Part shown: positions 4,869 through 28,076 of the stretch, piece after piece
Position numbering within the stretch: position 1 is the first letter of the stretch
Layout of the letters: every line of letters begins with the position of its first letter
Source of the DNA: Candidatus Tayloriibacteriota bacterium
GTDB lineage: Bacteria; Patescibacteriota; Minisyncoccia; Phycocordibacterales; UBA6065
DNA length: 64,000 nt
Assembly: GCA_016215405.1 (NCBI GenBank)
Contig: JACRJQ010000005.1
Coordinates: forward strand, 75,560 to 139,559
Direction: 5' to 3'
Translations under genes and position numbers: made by a program
Notes under the pieces: model-generated
Database searches by the model: none
Told to the model about the DNA's origin: nothing
The model's input: the letters and a program-made list of their open reading frames with translations, nothing else

Positions 4869-4997
4869 AGGACTAAGGGGTAAGATTCTCCGCCTACGGC
4901 GGCAGTACAGGTTTCCTATTTTCTCAGACGAATACGTCTTCGAAAATATAGGAGAACCCTTTCGAATCCTGTCCGGACGCTCCGCTGGAGCGTTCTC

Positions 4998-5044
4998 TAC
5001 GCACAAATAGAAAACACCCATTGGGTGTTTTCTATTTGTGCGTA
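4998..5044. terminator. Perfect 22-bp stem with a 3-nt loop between convergent clpB and tRNA-Tyr; it overlaps the tRNA 3' end
   Basis: tacgcacaaatagaaaacaccc att gggtgttttctatttgtgcgta. It is a perfect palindrome and its last 6 nt belong to the tRNA acceptor 3' strand. Confidence 0.5.
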
Positions 5045-5122
5045 GGACAGGATTCGAACCTGTGAAGCCCAATGGGCGACAGATTTACAGTCTGTTGTAT
5101 TTGACCACTCTACCACCTACGC
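5039..5122 (-). tRNA. tRNA-Tyr (anticodon GTA), type II with long variable arm; no encoded CCA
   Basis: The reverse complement folds as acceptor GCGTAGG/CCTACGC, anticodon stem-loop ACAGA-CTGTAAA-TCTGT and T-arm CAGGTTCGAATCCTG. Confidence 0.9.
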
Positions 5123-6877: not shown

Positions 6878-6882
6878 AAATG

Positions 6883-6912
6883 AAAGCCGCCTATAGGGCG
6901 GCTTTCTTTTTT
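6883..6912. terminator. Rho-independent bidirectional terminator after rpmG
   Basis: aaagccgcc tatag ggcggcttt followed by cttttttt. Confidence 0.8.
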
Positions 6913-7124: not shown

Positions 7125-7742
7125 TCAGTGATTGAATTGCTCTTGTTTGAATATGTGGGCGTCCTTTGGATCGCGGCCAGGAGAGAGGAGAACGATCTCG
7201 GAATTTCCGAAATGGAAGTTCTTGAGCGCGTCCTTCCAATCGATGCCATAGAACGCGGCGTAGATCATCTTGCCGATGTCGCCGTGACAGACGAGCAGGA
7301 CGTTGCCTCCTGCGCGCTCCTTCTGTACGTCCGAGATGAGCTTCTTCGCGCGCTCGATGAGATCGGGAAACGTCTCGGACCCCGGACATTCGGTCACGTA
7401 GGTGACCGTATTCGTCTTTATGATGTGAGGGGAATAGAGCTTTTCGATATCGGATATCTTCCTTCCAGTCATATCCCCGAAATTCCTCTCGATGAGACCG
7501 TCTCGCTTCTCAGGCTTATCGAGGCCTAGATGGTCGGCGATTATCTCTGCCGTCCTGTATGCCCTCGAGAGCGGGGAAGAATATATCTTGTCGAATCTGA
7601 TCCCGGTCTTCTCGAGGTGGAGGGCGAGGTTCTTCGCCTGTTCGATGCCGATCTTTGTCAAAGGGAGGTCGCGGTGCCCGTTGAGGATGCCGTTTACGTT
7701 GTCTTCGTTCTGGCCGTGGCGGACGAGGTAGATGGAAAGCAT
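7125..7742 (-). CDS. Histidine phosphatase family protein (phosphoglycerate-mutase-like)
   Basis: The N-terminus LVRHGQNEDN carries the RHG catalytic motif. Length is 205 aa. Confidence 0.8.
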   Translation of the reverse strand: MLSIYLVRHGQNEDNVNGILNGHRDLPLTKIGIEQAKNLALHLEKTGIRFDKIYSSPLSRAYRTAEIIADHLGLDKPEKRDGLIERNFGDMTGRKISDIEKLYSPHIIKTNTVTYVTECPGSETFPDLIERAKKLISDVQKERAGGNVLLVCHGDIGKMIYAAFYGIDWKDALKNFHFGNSEIVLLSPGRDPKDAHIFKQEQFNH

Positions 7743-7768
7743 GGGGAGTGATTAGGAGATGAGGGAAT

Positions 7769-7788
7769 CGGTCCTTACAGGACCAGTA
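7769..7788. repeat. 20-nt hairpin-forming motif cggtccttacaggaccagta (copy 1 of 2)
   Basis: Exact 20/20 match to 14340..14359. Internal hairpin ggtcc-ttaca-ggacc. It lies between a minus-strand tRNA and the start of the next minus-strand gene. Confidence 0.7.
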
Positions 7789-7835
7789 CCCATGTTTGGA
7801 TATATTTTCGCCTATGGCTCAAATCTGTCTCAAAC

Positions 7836-7855
7836 AGGCTTCGATTCCCTCATCG
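7836..7855 (+). repeat. Sense-orientation partial copy (19/20 nt) of the tRNA-Trp 3' half, inverted relative to the real tRNA
   Basis: gcttcgattccctcatcgcc versus the tRNA 3' half GGTTCGATTCCCTCATCGCC. Together with 7911..7930 it forms a long palindrome with nested hairpins in between. Confidence 0.75.
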
Positions 7856-7910
7856 CCAAAGCAATGATGTTTCGCTCGGACGGCTACCCAGCCGTCCTTG
7901 CGAATCATTG

Positions 7911-7981
7911 CGGGCGATGAGGGAATCGAACCCCCACCAAGGCGTTTGGAGTGCCTCGTTCTACCATTAAACTAATCGCCC
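7911..7981 (-). tRNA. tRNA-Trp (anticodon CCA); no encoded CCA
   Basis: Reverse complement GGGCGAT..D-arm..AGGCA-CTCCAAA-CGCCT..GGGGGTTCGATTCCCTCATCGCCCG. The anticodon loop CUCCAAA is classic Trp; there is one A-C mismatch in the anticodon stem. Confidence 0.85.
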
Positions 7982-9363: not shown

Positions 9364-10659
9364 ATGAAAATACGCACGTTCGCGTTTCTTTTGGTCGTCA
9401 CGGCGCTTTTGTCGGTCGCATTCGTCGCGAATGCCCAGACCGAAGCCGTCGCTGCCGAAGGATTCTGCCCAAGCCACGATGAATCGTCGGTCTCGGTAAC
9501 GCTCCAGCCTTTTCCTTCGAAGGTCGCGACGGGAGCATTCCTCCCTGTCGTCGCGCGCGTCACGAACCTGGAACCCTACCCGCTCTCGGGAGGATCCCTT
9601 CTCATGAGGCTCGTGAGCCTCGAGCCTGCGGACAGCGACTTCTCAGGCCTTTCGGGCGCCGTGCTCGCCCGATCGGTCGCTCTCGACGATATCTTCGTAG
9701 CTGCCGGCGAATCGAAAGAACTCTCGTTCATCTTCTCTCTCCCTTCGACCTTGCCGAAAGGCAAGTATCTCGTAGAAGCTGTCTATAGCGTGTCTGGCCT
9801 GAGCCCGGATGGCGTAGACGCGCTTCCGAGCGTCAACAAGCCGAATTCAGGTTTCGCGGCAATATCAATCGAGGGTATGGCTTCGGGCGGATTCGCGTTC
9901 GTCGATCCTCGGACTATCTCTGTCGCGGAGAGCGACGAGGGCGAGGTATCGGTCTCCGTAGACGTGGTCAACATGGCGAAAGCCGAAGCGTCGGTGCCTC
10001 TCCTCTGGAAGGCGTATCGAGGAAACGCTACGATCGAGGATTCGGCCGTGACAGGATCAGTAGAGACGATACGAGTCCCTGCCTCCGGCAGGACGAAGGC
10101 TTCCTATAGGCTCGATGACGGTTCATATTCATCGTATTCGATACTCGCCGCCGCAGCCTTCGGCGGGGTGTCATCCTATGCCGCGGCGAGAGCCGAGGAT
10201 GTGCGGGGAGGCGCCTTGGTGCGGCAGCTCGGCATAGCCACCTCGACCGAAGGATGGAAGGCGTTCGGCTGCGTGACGAACGCATTCGTCGACGACGAGG
10301 TCCAGAGGCTCGTGTCCCTCTCTGTCACAGACGGTTCGGGTATGGGGCTCGGCAGGAAAGAGTTCTCCGTGGCGGGAGAGCTTAACGACCTCGAGTTCTC
10401 GCTGCCGTTTACGATCGCAGGCACCGGGGACGTCATCGTCGCCGCGGAGATCATATCTGGCGGAGGGAGCAAGGAGTCTTTTCAAAAGGTGTTCAGATGC
10501 TCCGACCTCGGCACCTGCGCCGCGGTAGGCACAGGCAGGGCATCTGCCGCAGGAGAGCTCCTCTTCGCCGCCACCATGCTCATAGCCGGCCTCGGGGGCA
10601 TCATCGCCGTCTTGCTCAGGCCGAAAAAGCTCAAGCAGGCTCAAATATACACCTCTTAA
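9364..10659 (+). CDS. Secreted or surface hypothetical protein with signal peptide and C-terminal TM anchor
   Basis: The N-terminus MKIRTFAFLLVVTALLSVAFVANAQ is a signal peptide. The C-terminus has a hydrophobic helix followed by the basic tail RPKKLKQAQ. Confidence 0.6.
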   Translation: MKIRTFAFLLVVTALLSVAFVANAQTEAVAAEGFCPSHDESSVSVTLQPFPSKVATGAFLPVVARVTNLEPYPLSGGSLLMRLVSLEPADSDFSGLSGAVLARSVALDDIFVAAGESKELSFIFSLPSTLPKGKYLVEAVYSVSGLSPDGVDALPSVNKPNSGFAAISIEGMASGGFAFVDPRTISVAESDEGEVSVSVDVVNMAKAEASVPLLWKAYRGNATIEDSAVTGSVETIRVPASGRTKASYRLDDGSYSSYSILAAAAFGGVSSYAAARAEDVRGGALVRQLGIATSTEGWKAFGCVTNAFVDDEVQRLVSLSVTDGSGMGLGRKEFSVAGELNDLEFSLPFTIAGTGDVIVAAEIISGGGSKESFQKVFRCSDLGTCAAVGTGRASAAGELLFAATMLIAGLGGIIAVLLRPKKLKQAQIYTS

Positions 10660-10668
10660 TAAACGACC

Positions 10669-13341
10669 ATGAACAAGAAACTAATCATCGGGACATTCGC
10701 CGCGGCGCTCCTTCTGGCCGGAGCGTTCTATCAACACGTATCCGCTCAGTATTACGACGAGTACGAAGATTACAACGTCCCTTATACGCCCGTCGATCCG
10801 TGTCCAGGCAAGATCTGCGGATGGGTCGATGTTTCTAATGTGAGGGCTTTCGGCGTCGTTCACCCTACGCGAAACGGCATAAATTTCTATGGCACTCAGA
10901 CGACGAAGGAGCATCTCTGCCAGCTCGCGGGCTATGACCGCAGCAAGGGGGGCCAGGAGCAGAATAGGAAATGGAGCAAGTGTAACGACGAATACTACGT
11001 CACGTGGACCGGCAGCAACTGGAATATCTATAAATGCGACGCCAGGACGTATACGGTGAGCATATATTGCGAGAAGGACAAGCCGAATAACGCGCCGACG
11101 ATTTCATGGTCTCAAGCCCCGACCGCGGCGGCGTGCGACGCCTCGTACAAGGTAGAGGCGGCAGGCGCCGACGTAGACGGAAATCTTACGGCGGTGAGCG
11201 TCGATAAGAATGATTCCGCGTTCGCCTATGCCGGCGGCGGAAATGGATGGGAGGGCACGTCGGGCAATCCGACATCGGATAGCGGACCTAAGACCGTGAC
11301 CTTTACCGCCTGGTCGCAAGACTCGACAGGCGCACAGTCTGCAAAGATATCGCACACAGTATCGATAGGATCGTGCGTCGCTCCTAACAGGGAACCGACA
11401 GGCAGCCTTTCGGCGAGCTGCGCCGCGCTCTCTGGGAGCGCCTCTGACCCGGACGCTCCGGGCCAGTCGATAGGGGTCCATTTCTATGTTGACGGACCTG
11501 CTGGCAGCGGATCGTTCGCGGGGGCGACGAATACGAATGGAGGCTCGTATAGCATGGCTTTGCCTGAATCGCTCAAGACGGGGACCAACAGGACGGTATA
11601 CGCATACGCCATCGACACCGCCGGCGGCAATAATCCTCAGATCGGCCAGGCGACGGTGAATTGCTCTCCTGCTTCTGCTCCTGCTCCTACGGGATTCATC
11701 GCGGTCAGCCCATCGACCCTTCCTTCATCAGGAGGCAGCGTCACCGTGAGCTGGTCGGTCTCTGGCGCTTCGTCGTGCACGGCTTCTGGCGACTGGTCTG
11801 GCACCAAAGGATCGAGCGGGTCTGAGACGAAGCAGGTGAGCCGGTCGTCGCAATTCGATATAAGCTGCACGGGAGCCGGAGGCACATGGAGCGATAGCGG
11901 CCGAGTGACGGTCGCGGGGAGCCTCAACATCACCGATTTCTTCATCTCCCCGAATTCGGTCAAAGAGGGCGATGGCTTCACCATATACGGCGTCGCGCAA
12001 TGGAACGGGGTCGACTATATAAAGAGGCACAGAGCGTATTTCCAGGGCTCTCAGGGCGGCCAATGGACGTATGCGGCGGGGCCATATGCCGTGACCGTCG
12101 TCGCGAACGGATACTATACGGCCGAGAGGAATCCTTATTCCATGTATATGGGACCGGGATCATATAGCGTCGTGTATGAAGTGGAGGATAATGCCGGCAA
12201 TACGGATTCCGAGACGCGGTCGTTCACGTATCAAGGGGGCCAGCAGTGCGATACCAAGAGCCATACCTGCAGCGCTTCTTATACGGGATACGAATATCCT
12301 CAGTCGCAATCGACTCAGACGCTGACCGTGTATCAGTCGTGCGATATTTCCGAGCAGCAGCACGGCGCGCTCAATATCCCTAACGGGACGGCAACCCTTC
12401 AGAATAGGGCCTACAGCGACCAGTGCCCTCAGTGCTGGTATGACACGCACGCGTATCAGGGCACCACATGGCATTGTTCGAGGACGCTCTCAGGCTATGA
12501 CCATCCTCACTACAGGTCTACGTTCCCTGTGACCTATTACACTTCATGCAGCATAAGCGATGCTGAAAAGGCGGCTCTCGAAGCGCAGGGATATGTGTAT
12601 GGATACCGGCAGCGCACTCAGGAGACCAGTCCGGGCCAGTGGACCGACGTGCACTACATGAGCAACTGCGATTCGAACACCGCGAGATGCACCGATTCTA
12701 ACGCGACAAACTACAACCAGACAGGGTCGTGCCGTTACAACAATCAGACGAGATGCACCGATTCTAACGCTACGAACTACAATCAGATAGGCTCGTGCGA
12801 CTATTCGAACAACAACAATACTGACACGAACACGAACGGCGGGACGGGGAACAATCCTGGAGGAAACGGCAATAATGGCAATAACGGGAATCGTCCGATT
12901 CCGGGCTTTACCATAACGGCAGATAGCTCGAGGACGCCTGTTCAATTCGTCGGGGGGATCGGCGGCGGATCTGAGGCGAGGAGGATAGAGGTTAACCCGG
13001 TGAATGGCTTCAATGAGGATGTCACGGTGACCGTGGCGAGCATCCGCTCGAGGAGCGGGGGCCAGGCTTTGCCGGAAGGGGTCGTAGCGCTCTACTCGCT
13101 CGATAACAAGCCGTTCGCAGGCTCTATGTCTACGACGCAGAGATACAATCCGTCGGTCGGCGGGGGGAAGTATATCGGATCTGAAGGCCTCATCGGGTCG
13201 AGCTTCAAGCTCACGCTCTCGAAAGCCGTCTCGGAGCCGTATGAAGTCGTATTCAATGCGGTTTCGACATCGGGCAAGGCGGCGACGTATGTCCTCCTTA
13301 TCGAGCCGGATGTAAAGAATCCTTCTTTCAAAGAGCTTTAA
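10669..13341 (+). CDS. Large secreted low-complexity protein (Thr/Ser/Gly/Asn-rich) with an internal tandem repeat
   Basis: 890 aa with a signal peptide, many Cys pairs, N/T/G-rich tracts and a 66-nt tandem repeat at 12685..12816. Confidence 0.65.
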   Translation: MNKKLIIGTFAAALLLAGAFYQHVSAQYYDEYEDYNVPYTPVDPCPGKICGWVDVSNVRAFGVVHPTRNGINFYGTQTTKEHLCQLAGYDRSKGGQEQNRKWSKCNDEYYVTWTGSNWNIYKCDARTYTVSIYCEKDKPNNAPTISWSQAPTAAACDASYKVEAAGADVDGNLTAVSVDKNDSAFAYAGGGNGWEGTSGNPTSDSGPKTVTFTAWSQDSTGAQSAKISHTVSIGSCVAPNREPTGSLSASCAALSGSASDPDAPGQSIGVHFYVDGPAGSGSFAGATNTNGGSYSMALPESLKTGTNRTVYAYAIDTAGGNNPQIGQATVNCSPASAPAPTGFIAVSPSTLPSSGGSVTVSWSVSGASSCTASGDWSGTKGSSGSETKQVSRSSQFDISCTGAGGTWSDSGRVTVAGSLNITDFFISPNSVKEGDGFTIYGVAQWNGVDYIKRHRAYFQGSQGGQWTYAAGPYAVTVVANGYYTAERNPYSMYMGPGSYSVVYEVEDNAGNTDSETRSFTYQGGQQCDTKSHTCSASYTGYEYPQSQSTQTLTVYQSCDISEQQHGALNIPNGTATLQNRAYSDQCPQCWYDTHAYQGTTWHCSRTLSGYDHPHYRSTFPVTYYTSCSISDAEKAALEAQGYVYGYRQRTQETSPGQWTDVHYMSNCDSNTARCTDSNATNYNQTGSCRYNNQTRCTDSNATNYNQIGSCDYSNNNNTDTNTNGGTGNNPGGNGNNGNNGNRPIPGFTITADSSRTPVQFVGGIGGGSEARRIEVNPVNGFNEDVTVTVASIRSRSGGQALPEGVVALYSLDNKPFAGSMSTTQRYNPSVGGGKYIGSEGLIGSSFKLTLSKAVSEPYEVVFNAVSTSGKAATYVLLIEPDVKNPSFKEL
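12685..12816 (+). repeat. 66-nt tandem duplication (x2) inside the 890-aa gene, encoding RCTDSNATNYNQ[T/I]GSC
   Basis: agatgcaccgattctaacgc... recurs with period 66 nt. Confidence 0.8.
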
Positions 13342-13402: not shown

Positions 13403-14293
13403 TTAAGAGAGGAATCTCTTCGCGAGAGAGAGGGCTTTTCCGCTCTGATCCGGACGAAGCCAGTGTATATCCTTGTTCCTCTGGAACCACGTCATTTGGC
13501 GCTTGGAAAAATCGACGATGCGGTTCTCAAGCTCGAGGAGCATGCTCTCCTTTGAGATCTTCCCCTGGAGATAGAGCGCGAGAAAGCGATATTCGAGCCC
13601 GAGTTCGTGGAATCGTTTCCAGGAGAGGCCCCTTTTCCGCAATGACTTCGCTTCTTCGACCATACCCTGCTTCATGCGCCTCTGGAGGCGGGCGCGTATC
13701 TTTTCTCTGAGGGCCTTTCGATCTGTCGTAAGCCCGATCCAGAGAGTCTCGTACGCCTTTGTGCGCTTCATCTTTGGAACTTTACCGAGCACACGTGCGA
13801 TCTCTATGGCACGGATGATGCGTACCTTGTTGAGGGGATCGAGCTCTTTCGCCCGGCGAGGGTCGAGCTTCTCGATCTCCTTCATGAGCGTTTTCGTGCT
13901 TTTTTTAGCGAGCCGTGCGCGCAGCTTCGCGTCTGGAGGCACGGCAGGGAAGGATTCATCGTAGGCGAGAGCGTCGATATAGAATCCAGTGCCGCCGCAT
14001 ATGATCGGTACATCGCCGCGCGAGAGTATGTCCTCGATAGCTTTGCGTCCGTCATTCTTGAATCTCTCGACGTTATAGGTCTTTTTCGGGTCGCAGACAT
14101 CGATAAGATGGTGGGGCACGCCATTCATCTCGCGACGGGTTATCTTGCCCGACCCGACGTCGAGACCTCTGTATACCTGCCTCGAATCCGCCGAAACGAC
14201 CTCGCCCTTGAACCGTCGAGCCAAAAGCACGGCGAGGTCGCTCTTTCCTGTGGCGGTTGGGCCGCATACGATGATAACTTTCGGATGCCTCAT
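13403..14293 (-). CDS. miaA: tRNA dimethylallyltransferase
   Basis: P-loop CGPTATGKS in MRHPKVIIVCGPTATGKSDLA. The start was trimmed to the internal Met at 14293 because the longer ORF (to 14503) overlaps tRNA-Leu. Confidence 0.9.
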   Translation of the reverse strand: MRHPKVIIVCGPTATGKSDLAVLLARRFKGEVVSADSRQVYRGLDVGSGKITRREMNGVPHHLIDVCDPKKTYNVERFKNDGRKAIEDILSRGDVPIICGGTGFYIDALAYDESFPAVPPDAKLRARLAKKSTKTLMKEIEKLDPRRAKELDPLNKVRIIRAIEIARVLGKVPKMKRTKAYETLWIGLTTDRKALREKIRARLQRRMKQGMVEEAKSLRKRGLSWKRFHELGLEYRFLALYLQGKISKESMLLELENRIVDFSKRQMTWFQRNKDIHWLRPDQSGKALSLAKRFLS

Positions 14294-14339
14294 AGTGTAG
14301 ACTCTACCAGAAATAATCGGAAAGGGAATTTGGGAGGCT

Positions 14340-14359
14340 CGGTCCTTACAGGACCAGTA
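14340..14359. repeat. 20-nt hairpin-forming motif cggtccttacaggaccagta (copy 2 of 2)
   Basis: Identical to 7769..7788 and in the same context, between minus-strand tRNA-Leu and the miaA start. Confidence 0.7.
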
Positions 14360-14425
14360 TCCTGATTGGATGTGTAAGAACGCATGTTCAATCAGGCCTC
14401 GAGTCCCACGCACAAAGCTCCGCTT

Positions 14426-14509
14426 TGGTGCCGGAGGTGGGACTCGAACCCACACACCTTTCGATACGCGATTTTGAGTCGCGCGCGTCTGCCATTCCGC
14501 CACTCCGGC
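14426..14509 (-). tRNA. tRNA-Leu (anticodon CAA), type II, CCA encoded
   Basis: Reverse complement GCCGGAG..GTGGCGGAATGGCAGACGC..CGCGA-CTCAAAA-TCGCG..variable arm..GTGGGTTCGAGTCCCACCTCCGGCACCA. Confidence 0.9.
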
Positions 14510-14599: not shown

Positions 14600-15607
14600 A
14601 TGTCATCCCAATTCTTCGGAGATTCCATATTTTGGATAGAGACAGACAAGATAAGGCCGAATCCTTATCAGCCGAGGCGCGAATTCGACGAAGCGGCCCT
14701 TCGAGACCTCGCCGAATCGATCAGGATGTACGGCCTTCTGCAGCCTTTGGTGGTCACGAGGACCGAGATCCAGAAAGAGGACGGCGGCCTTGCCGTCGAG
14801 TACGAGCTCATCTCCGGAGAGAGACGATTGCGCGCATCGAAGCTCCTCGGCCTTTTGCAGGTCCCAGCGATCATCCGCGCCAATTCCGATGACGCGCGGG
14901 TAAAGCTCGAGCTCGCTATCATCGAGAACCTCCAGCGAGAGGATCTTAACCCTGTCGAACGCGCGCGATCCTTCAATCAGCTCGTGTCCGAATTCGGCCT
15001 CAAGCATATCCAGGTCGCTCAGAAGATAGGCAAGTCGCGCGAATACGTCTCGAACTCGATCCGCCTCCTCATGCTCCCGTCGGATATACTCGACGCCCTC
15101 TCCCAAGGCAAGATCTCCGAAGGGCATGCCCGACCTCTCATGATGCTCGCCGATAGGCCGGAAGAGCAGTCGACCCTGTTCAAAGAGATCACTTTCAAGA
15201 GGCTTACCGTGCGCGAGACCGAGATGATCGCGAGGAAGATCGCCGTCGAGAGGGCGCGCAAGAAGGAGCGCGCCTTCGACCCGGAGATGCTCGAGATAGA
15301 GCAGAGGCTCTCCGAGACTTTCGGAACCCGGGTCTCTATCGAGCAAAAGCAGAAAGGGGGCAAGATAACGATCGATTTCTTCTCTCCAGAGGACCTCAAG
15401 GCGATCATGGACGTCGTCGGAAAGAGGGAAAGGAAAGAGCCTGCCGCCCCTGTCGCTTTATCCGACCAGCCTGCGATACCCGCGCCTTCCCAAGAAGCCG
15501 AGACGGTTTCCGAGCCTCAAGCGCCCATAGACGATAGGTCGAAAGAGGAAAAGAAAGAGAGCGACAACAGCGAAGACCTCTATTCCATAAAGAATTTCTC
15601 CCTTTAG
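14600..15607 (+). CDS. parB: Chromosome partitioning protein ParB/Spo0J
   Basis: ParB box GLLQPLVV and the HTH region ELISGERRLRASKLLGL. The start was moved to the internal Met at 14600 because the track ORF begins at 14384, inside tRNA-Leu. Confidence 0.85.
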   Translation: MSSQFFGDSIFWIETDKIRPNPYQPRREFDEAALRDLAESIRMYGLLQPLVVTRTEIQKEDGGLAVEYELISGERRLRASKLLGLLQVPAIIRANSDDARVKLELAIIENLQREDLNPVERARSFNQLVSEFGLKHIQVAQKIGKSREYVSNSIRLLMLPSDILDALSQGKISEGHARPLMMLADRPEEQSTLFKEITFKRLTVRETEMIARKIAVERARKKERAFDPEMLEIEQRLSETFGTRVSIEQKQKGGKITIDFFSPEDLKAIMDVVGKRERKEPAAPVALSDQPAIPAPSQEAETVSEPQAPIDDRSKEEKKESDNSEDLYSIKNFSL

Positions 15608-27746: not shown

Positions 27747-27903
27747 ATATCTTATTGTACGCTTTTTGAGCAGGTTGGGGTGCGGGTAAGTCTGGACTTG
27801 GACCGCGAATACGCTTATCGCCCTCGACTCGAATCTCGCCGTCGCTCGATTCGGTCTGGGCACCGCCTCGCTCCCGCCGGAAGCCGTCGGGTCCTGCTCC
27901 GGC

Positions 27904-27949
27904 GTTCGATTCCAAACGCGATGCATTTCCATGCATCGCTGTCCGGCAA
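27904..27949 (+). repeat. Sense-orientation partial copy of the tRNA-Gln 3' half, split by a 25-nt hairpin
   Basis: gttcgattccaa (12 nt), then the hairpin gcgatgcat-ttcc-atgcatcgc, then gtccggcaa. It matches the tRNA 3' half GGTTCGATTCCAAGTCCGGCAA. The arm gtccggcaact/agttgccggac pairs with the real tRNA acceptor end. Confidence 0.65.
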
Positions 27950-27970
27950 CTACTCGCCGCAGCTTCTAGT

Positions 27971-28039
27971 TGCCGGACTTGGAATCGAACCAAGATTCTA
28001 GGCTCCAAAGGCCCATGTCCTACCATTAGACGATCCGGC
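27971..28039 (-). tRNA. tRNA-Gln (anticodon TTG); no encoded CCA
   Basis: Reverse complement GCCGGAT..TCTAATGGTAGGA..TGGGC-CTTTGGA-GCCTA..CTTGGTTCGATTCCAAGTCCGGCA. The 7-nt loop geometry puts TTG at positions 34-36. Pro (TGG) would need a shifted loop and is less likely. Confidence 0.75.
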
Positions 28040-28076
28040 AATATGTGGCCTTAAAAGTACACCAAAAGAGCTTTAA

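Follow-up and report, generated by a model that had tools for sequence, protein, structure and literature searches.

Integron attC sites and the attP(+) site of CTX phage are strand-specific, folded single-stranded sites whose structure covaries and mimics a double-stranded target. MITEs and palindrome-associated elements are non-autonomous derivatives of insertion sequences (IS) that are small, non-coding and hairpin-rich, and mascRNA and the t-elements of plant mitochondria are known as tRNA-like processing signals. An attB sublocation in the T-loop of tRNA genes was reportedly described by Williams in 2002. Islands in tRNA and tmRNA genes are recognized by a regenerated target gene together with a displaced fragment (Islander definition, PMC4383910). 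CPR bacteria and phages also carry TIGR-Tas systems, in which 36-nt units form arrays next to tas genes (PMC12045711). The Patescibacteria represent a large share of bacterial diversity, and their non-coding RNAs and mobile DNA are scarcely known. The DNA analysed here, a stretch of 64,000 nucleotides from a Candidatus Tayloriibacteriota bacterium (the window), contains tRNA-linked elements that resemble several of these systems in part. On balance, we favour the view that they belong to a family of non-coding 'micro-islands' that are inserted in the T-loop of Patescibacteria tRNA and tmRNA genes and regenerate the tRNA 3' end.

Structured cores behind the tRNA genes of the window

The 20-mer CGGTCCTTACAGGACCAGTA is found exactly twice in the window, on the + strand at 7769–7788 and 14340–14359, and these are the two identical copies reported by the first-pass annotation. 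No further copies were found in the window even with three mismatches allowed, and 100 shuffles of the window gave 0 matches (0 expected by chance). All four tRNA genes of the window (Tyr, Trp, Leu and Gln; ARAGORN, Rfam) lie on the minus strand, and at both sites the order on this strand is tRNA, motif, gene. The annotation had placed the 20-mers downstream of minus-strand tRNAs, which are tRNA-Trp(CCA) (7910–7981), the 3' end of which is copied at site 1, and tRNA-Leu(CAA) (14426–14509). The distances of 27 and 47 nt that it gave to the downstream starts agree with the ATGs at 7742 and 14293 of the His-phosphatase gene (7125–7742, minus strand; Pfam His_Phos_1) and miaA (13403–14293, minus strand; IPPT). 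When the two sites are aligned, the likeness extends well past the 20-mer. The 20-mer proposed as the repeat unit is therefore real but incomplete: the unit is a core of ~ 90 nt with tRNA-derived arms. Within it, the 20-mer is the P2 hairpin plus the adjoining junction of a conserved, structured non-coding core (about 75–90 nt), located on the strand of the tRNA and just behind its 3' end. The resemblance of the two flanks noted earlier (gagggaatc / gggaggctc) is also genuine, and arises because each flank is the reverse complement of the T-loop and T-stem 3' strand of its own tRNA.

Behind tRNA-Trp, a palindromic spacer (7858–7909, minus strand; hairpin GGACGGCU..AGCCGUCC, found by long-hairpin alignment) leads to an inverted repeat (IR) of tRNA-Trp positions 54–71 (7840–7857, minus strand), which on the + strand reads ttcgattccctcatcgcc and by direct reading is identical to the tRNA. 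The type-A core (7761–7851, minus strand) comprises inner P1, GAAG, P3 (about 7790–7838), GUACU and P2. It folds as a three-way junction with a z-score of -6.3 to -6.6 and is scored at 81.3 bits by our covariance model R1 (see below), the training set of which includes this sequence itself. Copy 1 of the 20-mer (7769–7788, minus strand; exact match) consists of the P2 hairpin (7770–7784) and the junction UACU (7785–7788). On the tRNA strand, P2 reads GGUCC UGUAA GGACC and is predicted in every fold. It is directly followed on that strand by DR2, a displaced fragment that corresponds to tRNA-Trp positions 57–74 (7752–7769, minus strand; 14/18 identical). The appearance of an acceptor plus CCA at site 1 reflects only this copying of tRNA-Trp. 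At site 2, the IR of tRNA-Leu (14398–14423, minus strand; direct reading) covers the T-loop and T-stem (ctcgagtcccac) and part of the acceptor strand (ctccgc). The type-A core (14332–14409, minus strand; R1 53.2 bits, E = 8.5e-11) has a short P3 (about 14361–14396) and contains copy 2 of the 20-mer (14340–14359, minus strand; exact match), with P2 at 14341–14355 and the junction at 14356–14359. A strongly decayed DR2 of tRNA-Leu can be read directly at 14324–14340 (minus strand; GAGCCUCCCAAAUUCCC vs GAGUCCCACCUCCGGCAC).

The first-pass annotation described two equivalent junctions. A third, diverged copy follows tRNA-Tyr(GTA) (5038–5122, minus strand; ARAGORN and Rfam), where no gene starts. 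Its type-A core (4880–4972, minus strand; R1 58.2 bits, E = 4.9e-12) has a variant P2, CCGCC GUA GGCGG (4890–4902), which is followed by CAGTA in the + reading. The region between tRNA and core (4961–5037, minus strand; direct reading) holds a perfect palindromic terminator (5005–5037) and an IR in two pieces, ctacgcac (4997–5004) and ttcgaatcctgtcc (4961–4974), with a P4 hairpin (4975–4996) between them. This core borders on the 3' end of ClpB, which is convergent; since the third copy thus faces a gene end, the motif is linked to the tRNA and not to a gene start. R1 detects only these three tRNA trailers in the window, and its next best match scores 10.9 bits.

The remaining tRNA, tRNA-Gln(TTG) (27969–28040, minus strand; ARAGORN and Rfam), is followed by another core, type C (27790–27915, minus strand; GGTCTGGGCACCGCCTCG...GCTCCGGCG in the + reading), which has the same flank logic, with an IR, gttcgattccaa, at 27904–27915 and DR2 at 27790–27819. 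A related core is present in locus L014. DR2 of tRNA-Gln contains a 14-nt mini-hairpin insertion, ccgcgaatacgctt. The mini-hairpin (ccgcgaGTACgctt; AAGCG UACU CGCGG on the tRNA strand) occupies 27803–27816, where it separates positions 59 and 60 of the displaced T-loop copy, and its UACU is the same motif as the junction beside P2. It is also found in the 5' flanks of L007, L021, L035, L055, L062, L076 and L098.

No recombinase or transposase was found in or beside the window elements, whose neighbours are ClpB, alanine racemase, His phosphatase, MgsA, MiaA and TopA. No Pfam match at E ≤ 1e-5 was obtained for three sizeable ORFs at 9364–10659 (+), 10669–13341 (+) and 14603–15346 (minus), of 431, 890 and 247 aa. 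In the window and in relatives, most tRNA genes end with the discriminator and one C (e.g. GCAA, ACAA) and lack the full CCA; the tRNA-Leu gene does encode CCA (the tRNA 3' ends are at 7910, 5038 and 14426). A typical terminator of these genomes is a long, perfect palindrome that includes both an A-tract and a T-tract, as at the empty sites of L033, L036, L061 and L062 and at 5005–5037 of the window, and therefore looks bidirectional; the window terminator at 6882–6906 is called on both strands. The Logan run SRR12113407 is the only other source of this genome. Its sequence is identical, with no strain polymorphism between the two sources. One contig of this independent assembly (L118) ends right within the tRNA-Trp T-arm, where three copies of the tRNA 3' segment would be expected to mislead an assembler.

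Fold and distribution of the core

An alignment of 58 cores gave a consensus three-way junction, from which R1 was built. Compensatory (double) changes are seen at 18 of the 26 pairs in this alignment, and the junction strands are GAAR, GUACU and zero nt. Across all loci, the P2 stem comes in 16 different complementary versions, whereas the TACT on one side of it and the TGTAA loop on the other never vary. The hairpin is thus selected for structure, with specific sequences in its loop and 5' flank. P3 and P2 are the parts of the core under selection, and the 20-mer of the window is the commonest allele of the P2 hairpin across loci. Upper P3 often contains a symmetric internal loop of tandem G-A/A-G pairs (UGAG / CGAA or CGAG / CGAG) with A-U-rich helices on either side, for example on the tRNA strand at 7806–7826 of the window. 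Possibly, this loop is a protein-binding or tertiary motif.

The tRNA-sense strand is the more stable one in 65 of 68 copies (mean 4.6 kcal/mol), because its G-U pairs turn into A-C mismatches on the other strand. This bias could partly come from C-to-T mutation bias of the non-template strand. Strand bias and covariation together suit folded sites of the attC/attP(+) kind and do not in themselves distinguish ssDNA from RNA.

Several other identities were considered for the motif and rejected. A hammerhead is excluded by its junction strands (GAAR, GUACU, zero nt), from which the CUGANGA/GAAA core strands are absent, and by the lack of an Rfam match; the junction strands are likewise unsuited to other junction ribozymes. 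The halves of a sarcin-ricin motif (AGUA/GAA) fall on opposite strands, and a pseudoknot between the P2 loop and UACU is sterically implausible. Neither ARAGORN nor Rfam calls a tRNA on the + strand, whether permuted or intron-containing. The 20-mer is not an intrinsic terminator, as P2 is followed on the tRNA strand by GAUUCC with no U-tract and none is called there. In Rfam 15, searched at gathering and E-value thresholds with the window and 14 loci, only tRNAs and tmRNAs were found; the weak matches are long-hairpin artefacts.

In a species-representative genome collection, the 19-mer used to pick loci is present in at least 117 loci. All named sources but one are Patescibacteria lineages, including Parcubacteria/Paceibacteria, Kaiser-, Nomura- and Taylorbacteria and MAGs labelled Saccharibacteria. 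The exception (L108) is a Niabella contig without any other feature of the element and is a chance match. Among the copies listed, 88 of 120 have a tRNA or tmRNA on the same strand within 320 nt upstream and 17 are cut by locus ends. The remaining 15 include two next to a tmRNA (Rfam; directly in L068, via an array in L003), one next to an N-masked tRNA and several in arrays, so that at least 91 of the 103 evaluable copies lie 80–320 nt after a tRNA or tmRNA. At least 33 different anticodons are represented next to the 19-mer. The recurrent context described in the first-pass annotation thus extends to the 3' ends of tRNAs and tmRNAs at over 100 loci of Patescibacteria. For the same reason, neither of the two outcomes that it had named as speaking against its proposal, a motif at random positions or a purely local duplication, applies. 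A phage origin was also rejected, as the 19-mer has 0 matches among the 2.9 million viral contigs of IMG/VR.

Because these loci were chosen by the exact 19-mer, conservation statistics drawn from them are biased; the unbiased samples are the window itself and loci collected through MiaA. In 80 such loci, obtained via MiaA relatives, R1 found more cores after tRNA-Trp, tRNA-Tyr and tRNA-Leu, none of which contains the exact 19-mer. The element is undescribed in the full-text literature that we searched, and the sequence of the 19-mer is in none of these papers.

tRNA-derived flanks and their interpretation

On the tRNA strand, the order of parts is tRNA, spacer or palindromic terminator, inverted copy (positions 74 to 54), GAA-R, variable P3, G-UACU, P2, an 18-nt direct copy (57–74) and the old flank, which often has a terminator of its own. 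From the trailer, the inverted copy extends as far back as T54, often with a conserved P4 hairpin inserted between 65 and 66. The direct copy starts with G57 right after P2 and typically ends with C74, one base past the discriminator, giving 18 nt; in 26 clean cases the end was at +1 in 11, +2 in five and +3 in three. In the unbiased MiaA loci, the 18-nt repeat is common to other core types too. On average, the direct copy has an identity of 0.85 and the inverted copy one of 0.94 with the neighbouring tRNA; with an unrelated tRNA the values are 0.67 and 0.83. Changes relative to the tRNA were found 34 times in the direct copy only, 35 times in the inverted copy only and four times in both. The two copies thus decay independently, as expected of an insertion scar and not of a selected helix; a selected P1/acceptor helix is ruled out by this divergence, and the apparent covariation of the outer helix arises because both strands are copies of one tRNA.

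The layout is the mark that an insertion in the T-loop, between C56 and G57, leaves behind. As a tRNA 3' end would come with the insert, the gene is kept whole and the original 3' fragment is pushed downstream. Islands in tRNA and tmRNA genes are distinguished by a regenerated tRNA gene and a displaced 3' fragment (PMC4383910), and we therefore read the elements as T-loop insertions. Displaced fragments in the window are partly or strongly decayed, from which all three copies are probably old. P3 differs among the copies of one genome, so there is no sign of recent bursts.

Insertion is also suggested by optional presence. In motif-bearing loci, 46 of 146 operon-terminal tRNAs have a plain palindromic terminator only. 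The tRNA-Leu upstream of miaA carries type A in the window, type B in L120, L123, L124 and L138, and no element in L129, where only 5 nt separate the tRNA from the miaA start. In L121, tRNA-Trp is empty; this tRNA has type A in the window (variants in L124 and L131) and other cores in L120 and L125; tRNA-Tyr is empty in L131 and has type A in the window (variants in L120 and L124), with no other cores seen in the relatives compared. An element that is optional, and whose orthologous tRNAs are empty or carry other cores, argues against the obligatory processing site that had been suggested at first. The suggestion of a small genome-wide repeat came closest, although the element would be a structured insertion targeted to tRNA genes and not a generic REP-like sequence.

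Tandem arrays are present in L003, L019, L027, L029, L034, L093 and L105; the cores in them are alike or unlike, and every core has tRNA copies of its own. The type B family (AATC GGTCACG... in the + reading; L013, L034, L048, L090, L120, L123, L124 and L138) has the same insertion architecture and 18-nt repeat; it also shares the terminal helix GGUC...GACC and a hairpin like P3 that contains tandem G-A pairs. A gene-carrying segment of 3.3 kb in L022 (925–4345), with 65-nt inverted ends (GCTCTNCTCGCCCGCACNCAGGAGTGG...), lies between two P2-plus-repeat copies of tRNA-Glu. It codes for an HTH protein of the XRE type, for small secreted proteins and for a KilA-N-like protein, and is followed by a Fic-domain gene; no integrase-sized ORF was found in it. 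TnpB, IS605 and integrase genes were absent from the longer inserts of L022, L029, L062 and L073.

We propose that strand exchange would be site-specific and take place in the T-loop, with the core acting as a single-stranded nucleic acid, ssDNA or RNA, of tRNA sense. To judge by the geometry, P2 would stack on the helix of the inverted and direct tRNA copies and form a continuous duplex that imitates the gene's double helix across the crossover. As the 3' strand of P2 runs into G57 without a linker, P2 plus the arm helix would imitate the gene duplex and not the cloverleaf; positions 57–60, which are loop bases in the tRNA, are paired in the predicted arm helix. The invariant UACU and UGUAA loop may be sequence-specific handles for a putative enzyme. 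One explicit scheme, staggered breaks at 56|57 and 74|75 with snap-back synthesis, reproduced the layout, but the likeness of spacer and post-repeat flank that it predicts was found in few loci only and the scheme was set aside. More tentatively, and with some doubt, we suggest that the elements are a new mobile or once-mobile protein-free class that travels as a folded strand and exchanges at C56|G57, or alternatively a new class of structured RNA at CPR tRNA 3' ends. If mobile, the fold would mimic the double-stranded T-arm and acceptor segment of the target gene and so direct exchange by a host or other enzyme, and the target-specific arms would be generated or reprogrammed in a copying step.

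Several findings count against micro-islands. There is no recombinase or transposase in or beside the elements, the arms fit each local tRNA although one core family extends across at least 33 tRNAs, and the inverted tRNA copy is foreign to classical integrase islands. P2 conservation and P3 covariation would equally suit an RNA with a cellular function. Such an RNA, a cis-acting structure in the tRNA/tmRNA 3' trailer that is co-transcribed with the tRNA, is in our judgement unlikely, and the other alternatives considered below are less likely still. The inverted copy would pair with the tRNA 3' strand or with the downstream mimic and form a switch or a tRNA-like minihelix, with a role in 3'-end processing, termination, read-through control or quality control. 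In every case the element indeed follows the tRNA directly and on the same strand, its tRNA-sense strand folds better (65/68 copies), P3 and P2 covary, and the inverted copy pairs with the 3' strand of the tRNA in predicted folds. In some loci (e.g. L025) the sole terminator follows the direct repeat, so that the core would be co-transcribed. Many copies, however, lie behind a strong palindromic terminator (tRNA-Tyr here, L011, L033). A trailer function also fits poorly with an element that is missing from the 46 terminal tRNAs and from orthologous tRNAs mentioned above, with quite different cores between the same flanks, with an outer P1 and acceptor-like helix that lacks compensatory evolution, and with paired segments (57–60) that imitate the gene duplex rather than the cloverleaf.

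By analogy with RNAs transcribed from IS200/IS605 right ends into flanking DNA, UACU-P2 could be the handle and the 18-nt segment (tRNA 57–74) the 'guide' of an RNA that homes a nuclease or recombinase to tRNA genes. The handle is the most conserved part, and P2 abuts, without a linker, a flank-derived segment of fixed length. The reading is nevertheless improbable, as the loci inspected contain no TnpB, IscB or IS110-type gene, and the supposed guide decays freely and would be sequestered by the inverted copy. We give still less weight to an independent small RNA of the + strand, convergent with the tRNA and sharing a bidirectional terminator with it, the 5' arm of which would be antisense to the tRNA 3' end. 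The palindromic terminators that make up many spacers do have A- and T-tracts and are usable both ways, and the + strand also folds into a three-way junction; it is, however, the less stable strand in 65 of 68 copies, where wobbles become A-C mismatches, and at sites 1 and 2 the promoter would need to sit inside the start of the opposite gene, where none was found. Least credible of all, with next to no weight in our view, is a promoter, operator or 5'-UTR regulator of the His phosphatase and miaA, although the 20-mer is palindromic and lies 27 and 47 nt upstream of two start codons, and a promoter-associated element was among the first suggestions. No promoter signal rises above chance: a sigma-70 promoter inside P3 was sought and rejected, with one 9/12 match at site 1 and none at site 2. 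The copy at tRNA-Tyr has no downstream gene, only the convergent ClpB end, downstream content varies among at least 100 loci, and in relatives (L129) miaA directly follows tRNA-Leu without the element. The tRNA-Tyr copy and the comparative data have already largely refuted this reading.

If the micro-island reading is correct, about half of the operon-terminal tRNAs in the motif-chosen loci bear small structured inserts that are invisible to standard annotation. The inserts would also break assemblies, as in the Logan contig that ends inside a tRNA T-arm, and would record a site-specific process in the T-loop with nucleotide-precise boundaries at 56|57 and 74|75. A single core matched to dozens of tRNAs implies some programming of target specificity, which would be of mechanistic and possibly technological interest. 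Should the core instead be a functional RNA, it would represent a widespread new class of tRNA-linked RNA in a phylum with reduced RNA-processing machinery.

Comparison with known systems

Three traits set the elements apart: small size without a gene, an extra inverted copy of the tRNA 3' end, and one core shared across dozens of tRNAs. Like tyrosine-integrase islands, they have tRNA and tmRNA targets with a breakpoint in the T-loop, a replacement 3' end that regenerates the gene (intact tRNAs; tmRNA in L068 and L003), a displaced 3' fragment as a direct repeat at the far end, and tandem accretion at one tRNA gene. Unlike such islands, the inserts are only ~ 130–250 bp long without an ORF or integrase, contain the inverted 3' copy and a conserved structured core, and use one core family for at least 33 different tRNAs. 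With MITEs they share being small, non-coding, hairpin-rich, multi-copy and intergenic; in contrast, their ends are copies of the local tRNA rather than constant terminal inverted repeats, their 18-nt repeat is set by tRNA positions, target specificity is strict and copies within a genome are dissimilar. IS200/IS605 derivatives and TnpB right-end RNAs differ in that a direct repeat is present here and the longer inserts examined contain no tnpA or tnpB ORFs. TIGR-Tas guide arrays were rejected because their architecture differs from that of the element. Similar to mascRNA and t-elements, the element is tRNA-derived and lies beside other transcription units, but it has no cloverleaf, the Rfam tRNA and mascRNA models do not score, and its arms imitate the gene duplex. 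With regard to integron attC and CTX attP(+), the core alignment shows no R-box (GTTRRRY) or dif-like core and no recombinase was found. Tandem arrays at the target recall these sites; a strand-specific fold, covariation and, judging from geometry and for a presumed ssDNA form, mimicry of the target duplex may be further points of likeness, although strand bias and covariation would suit RNA as well.
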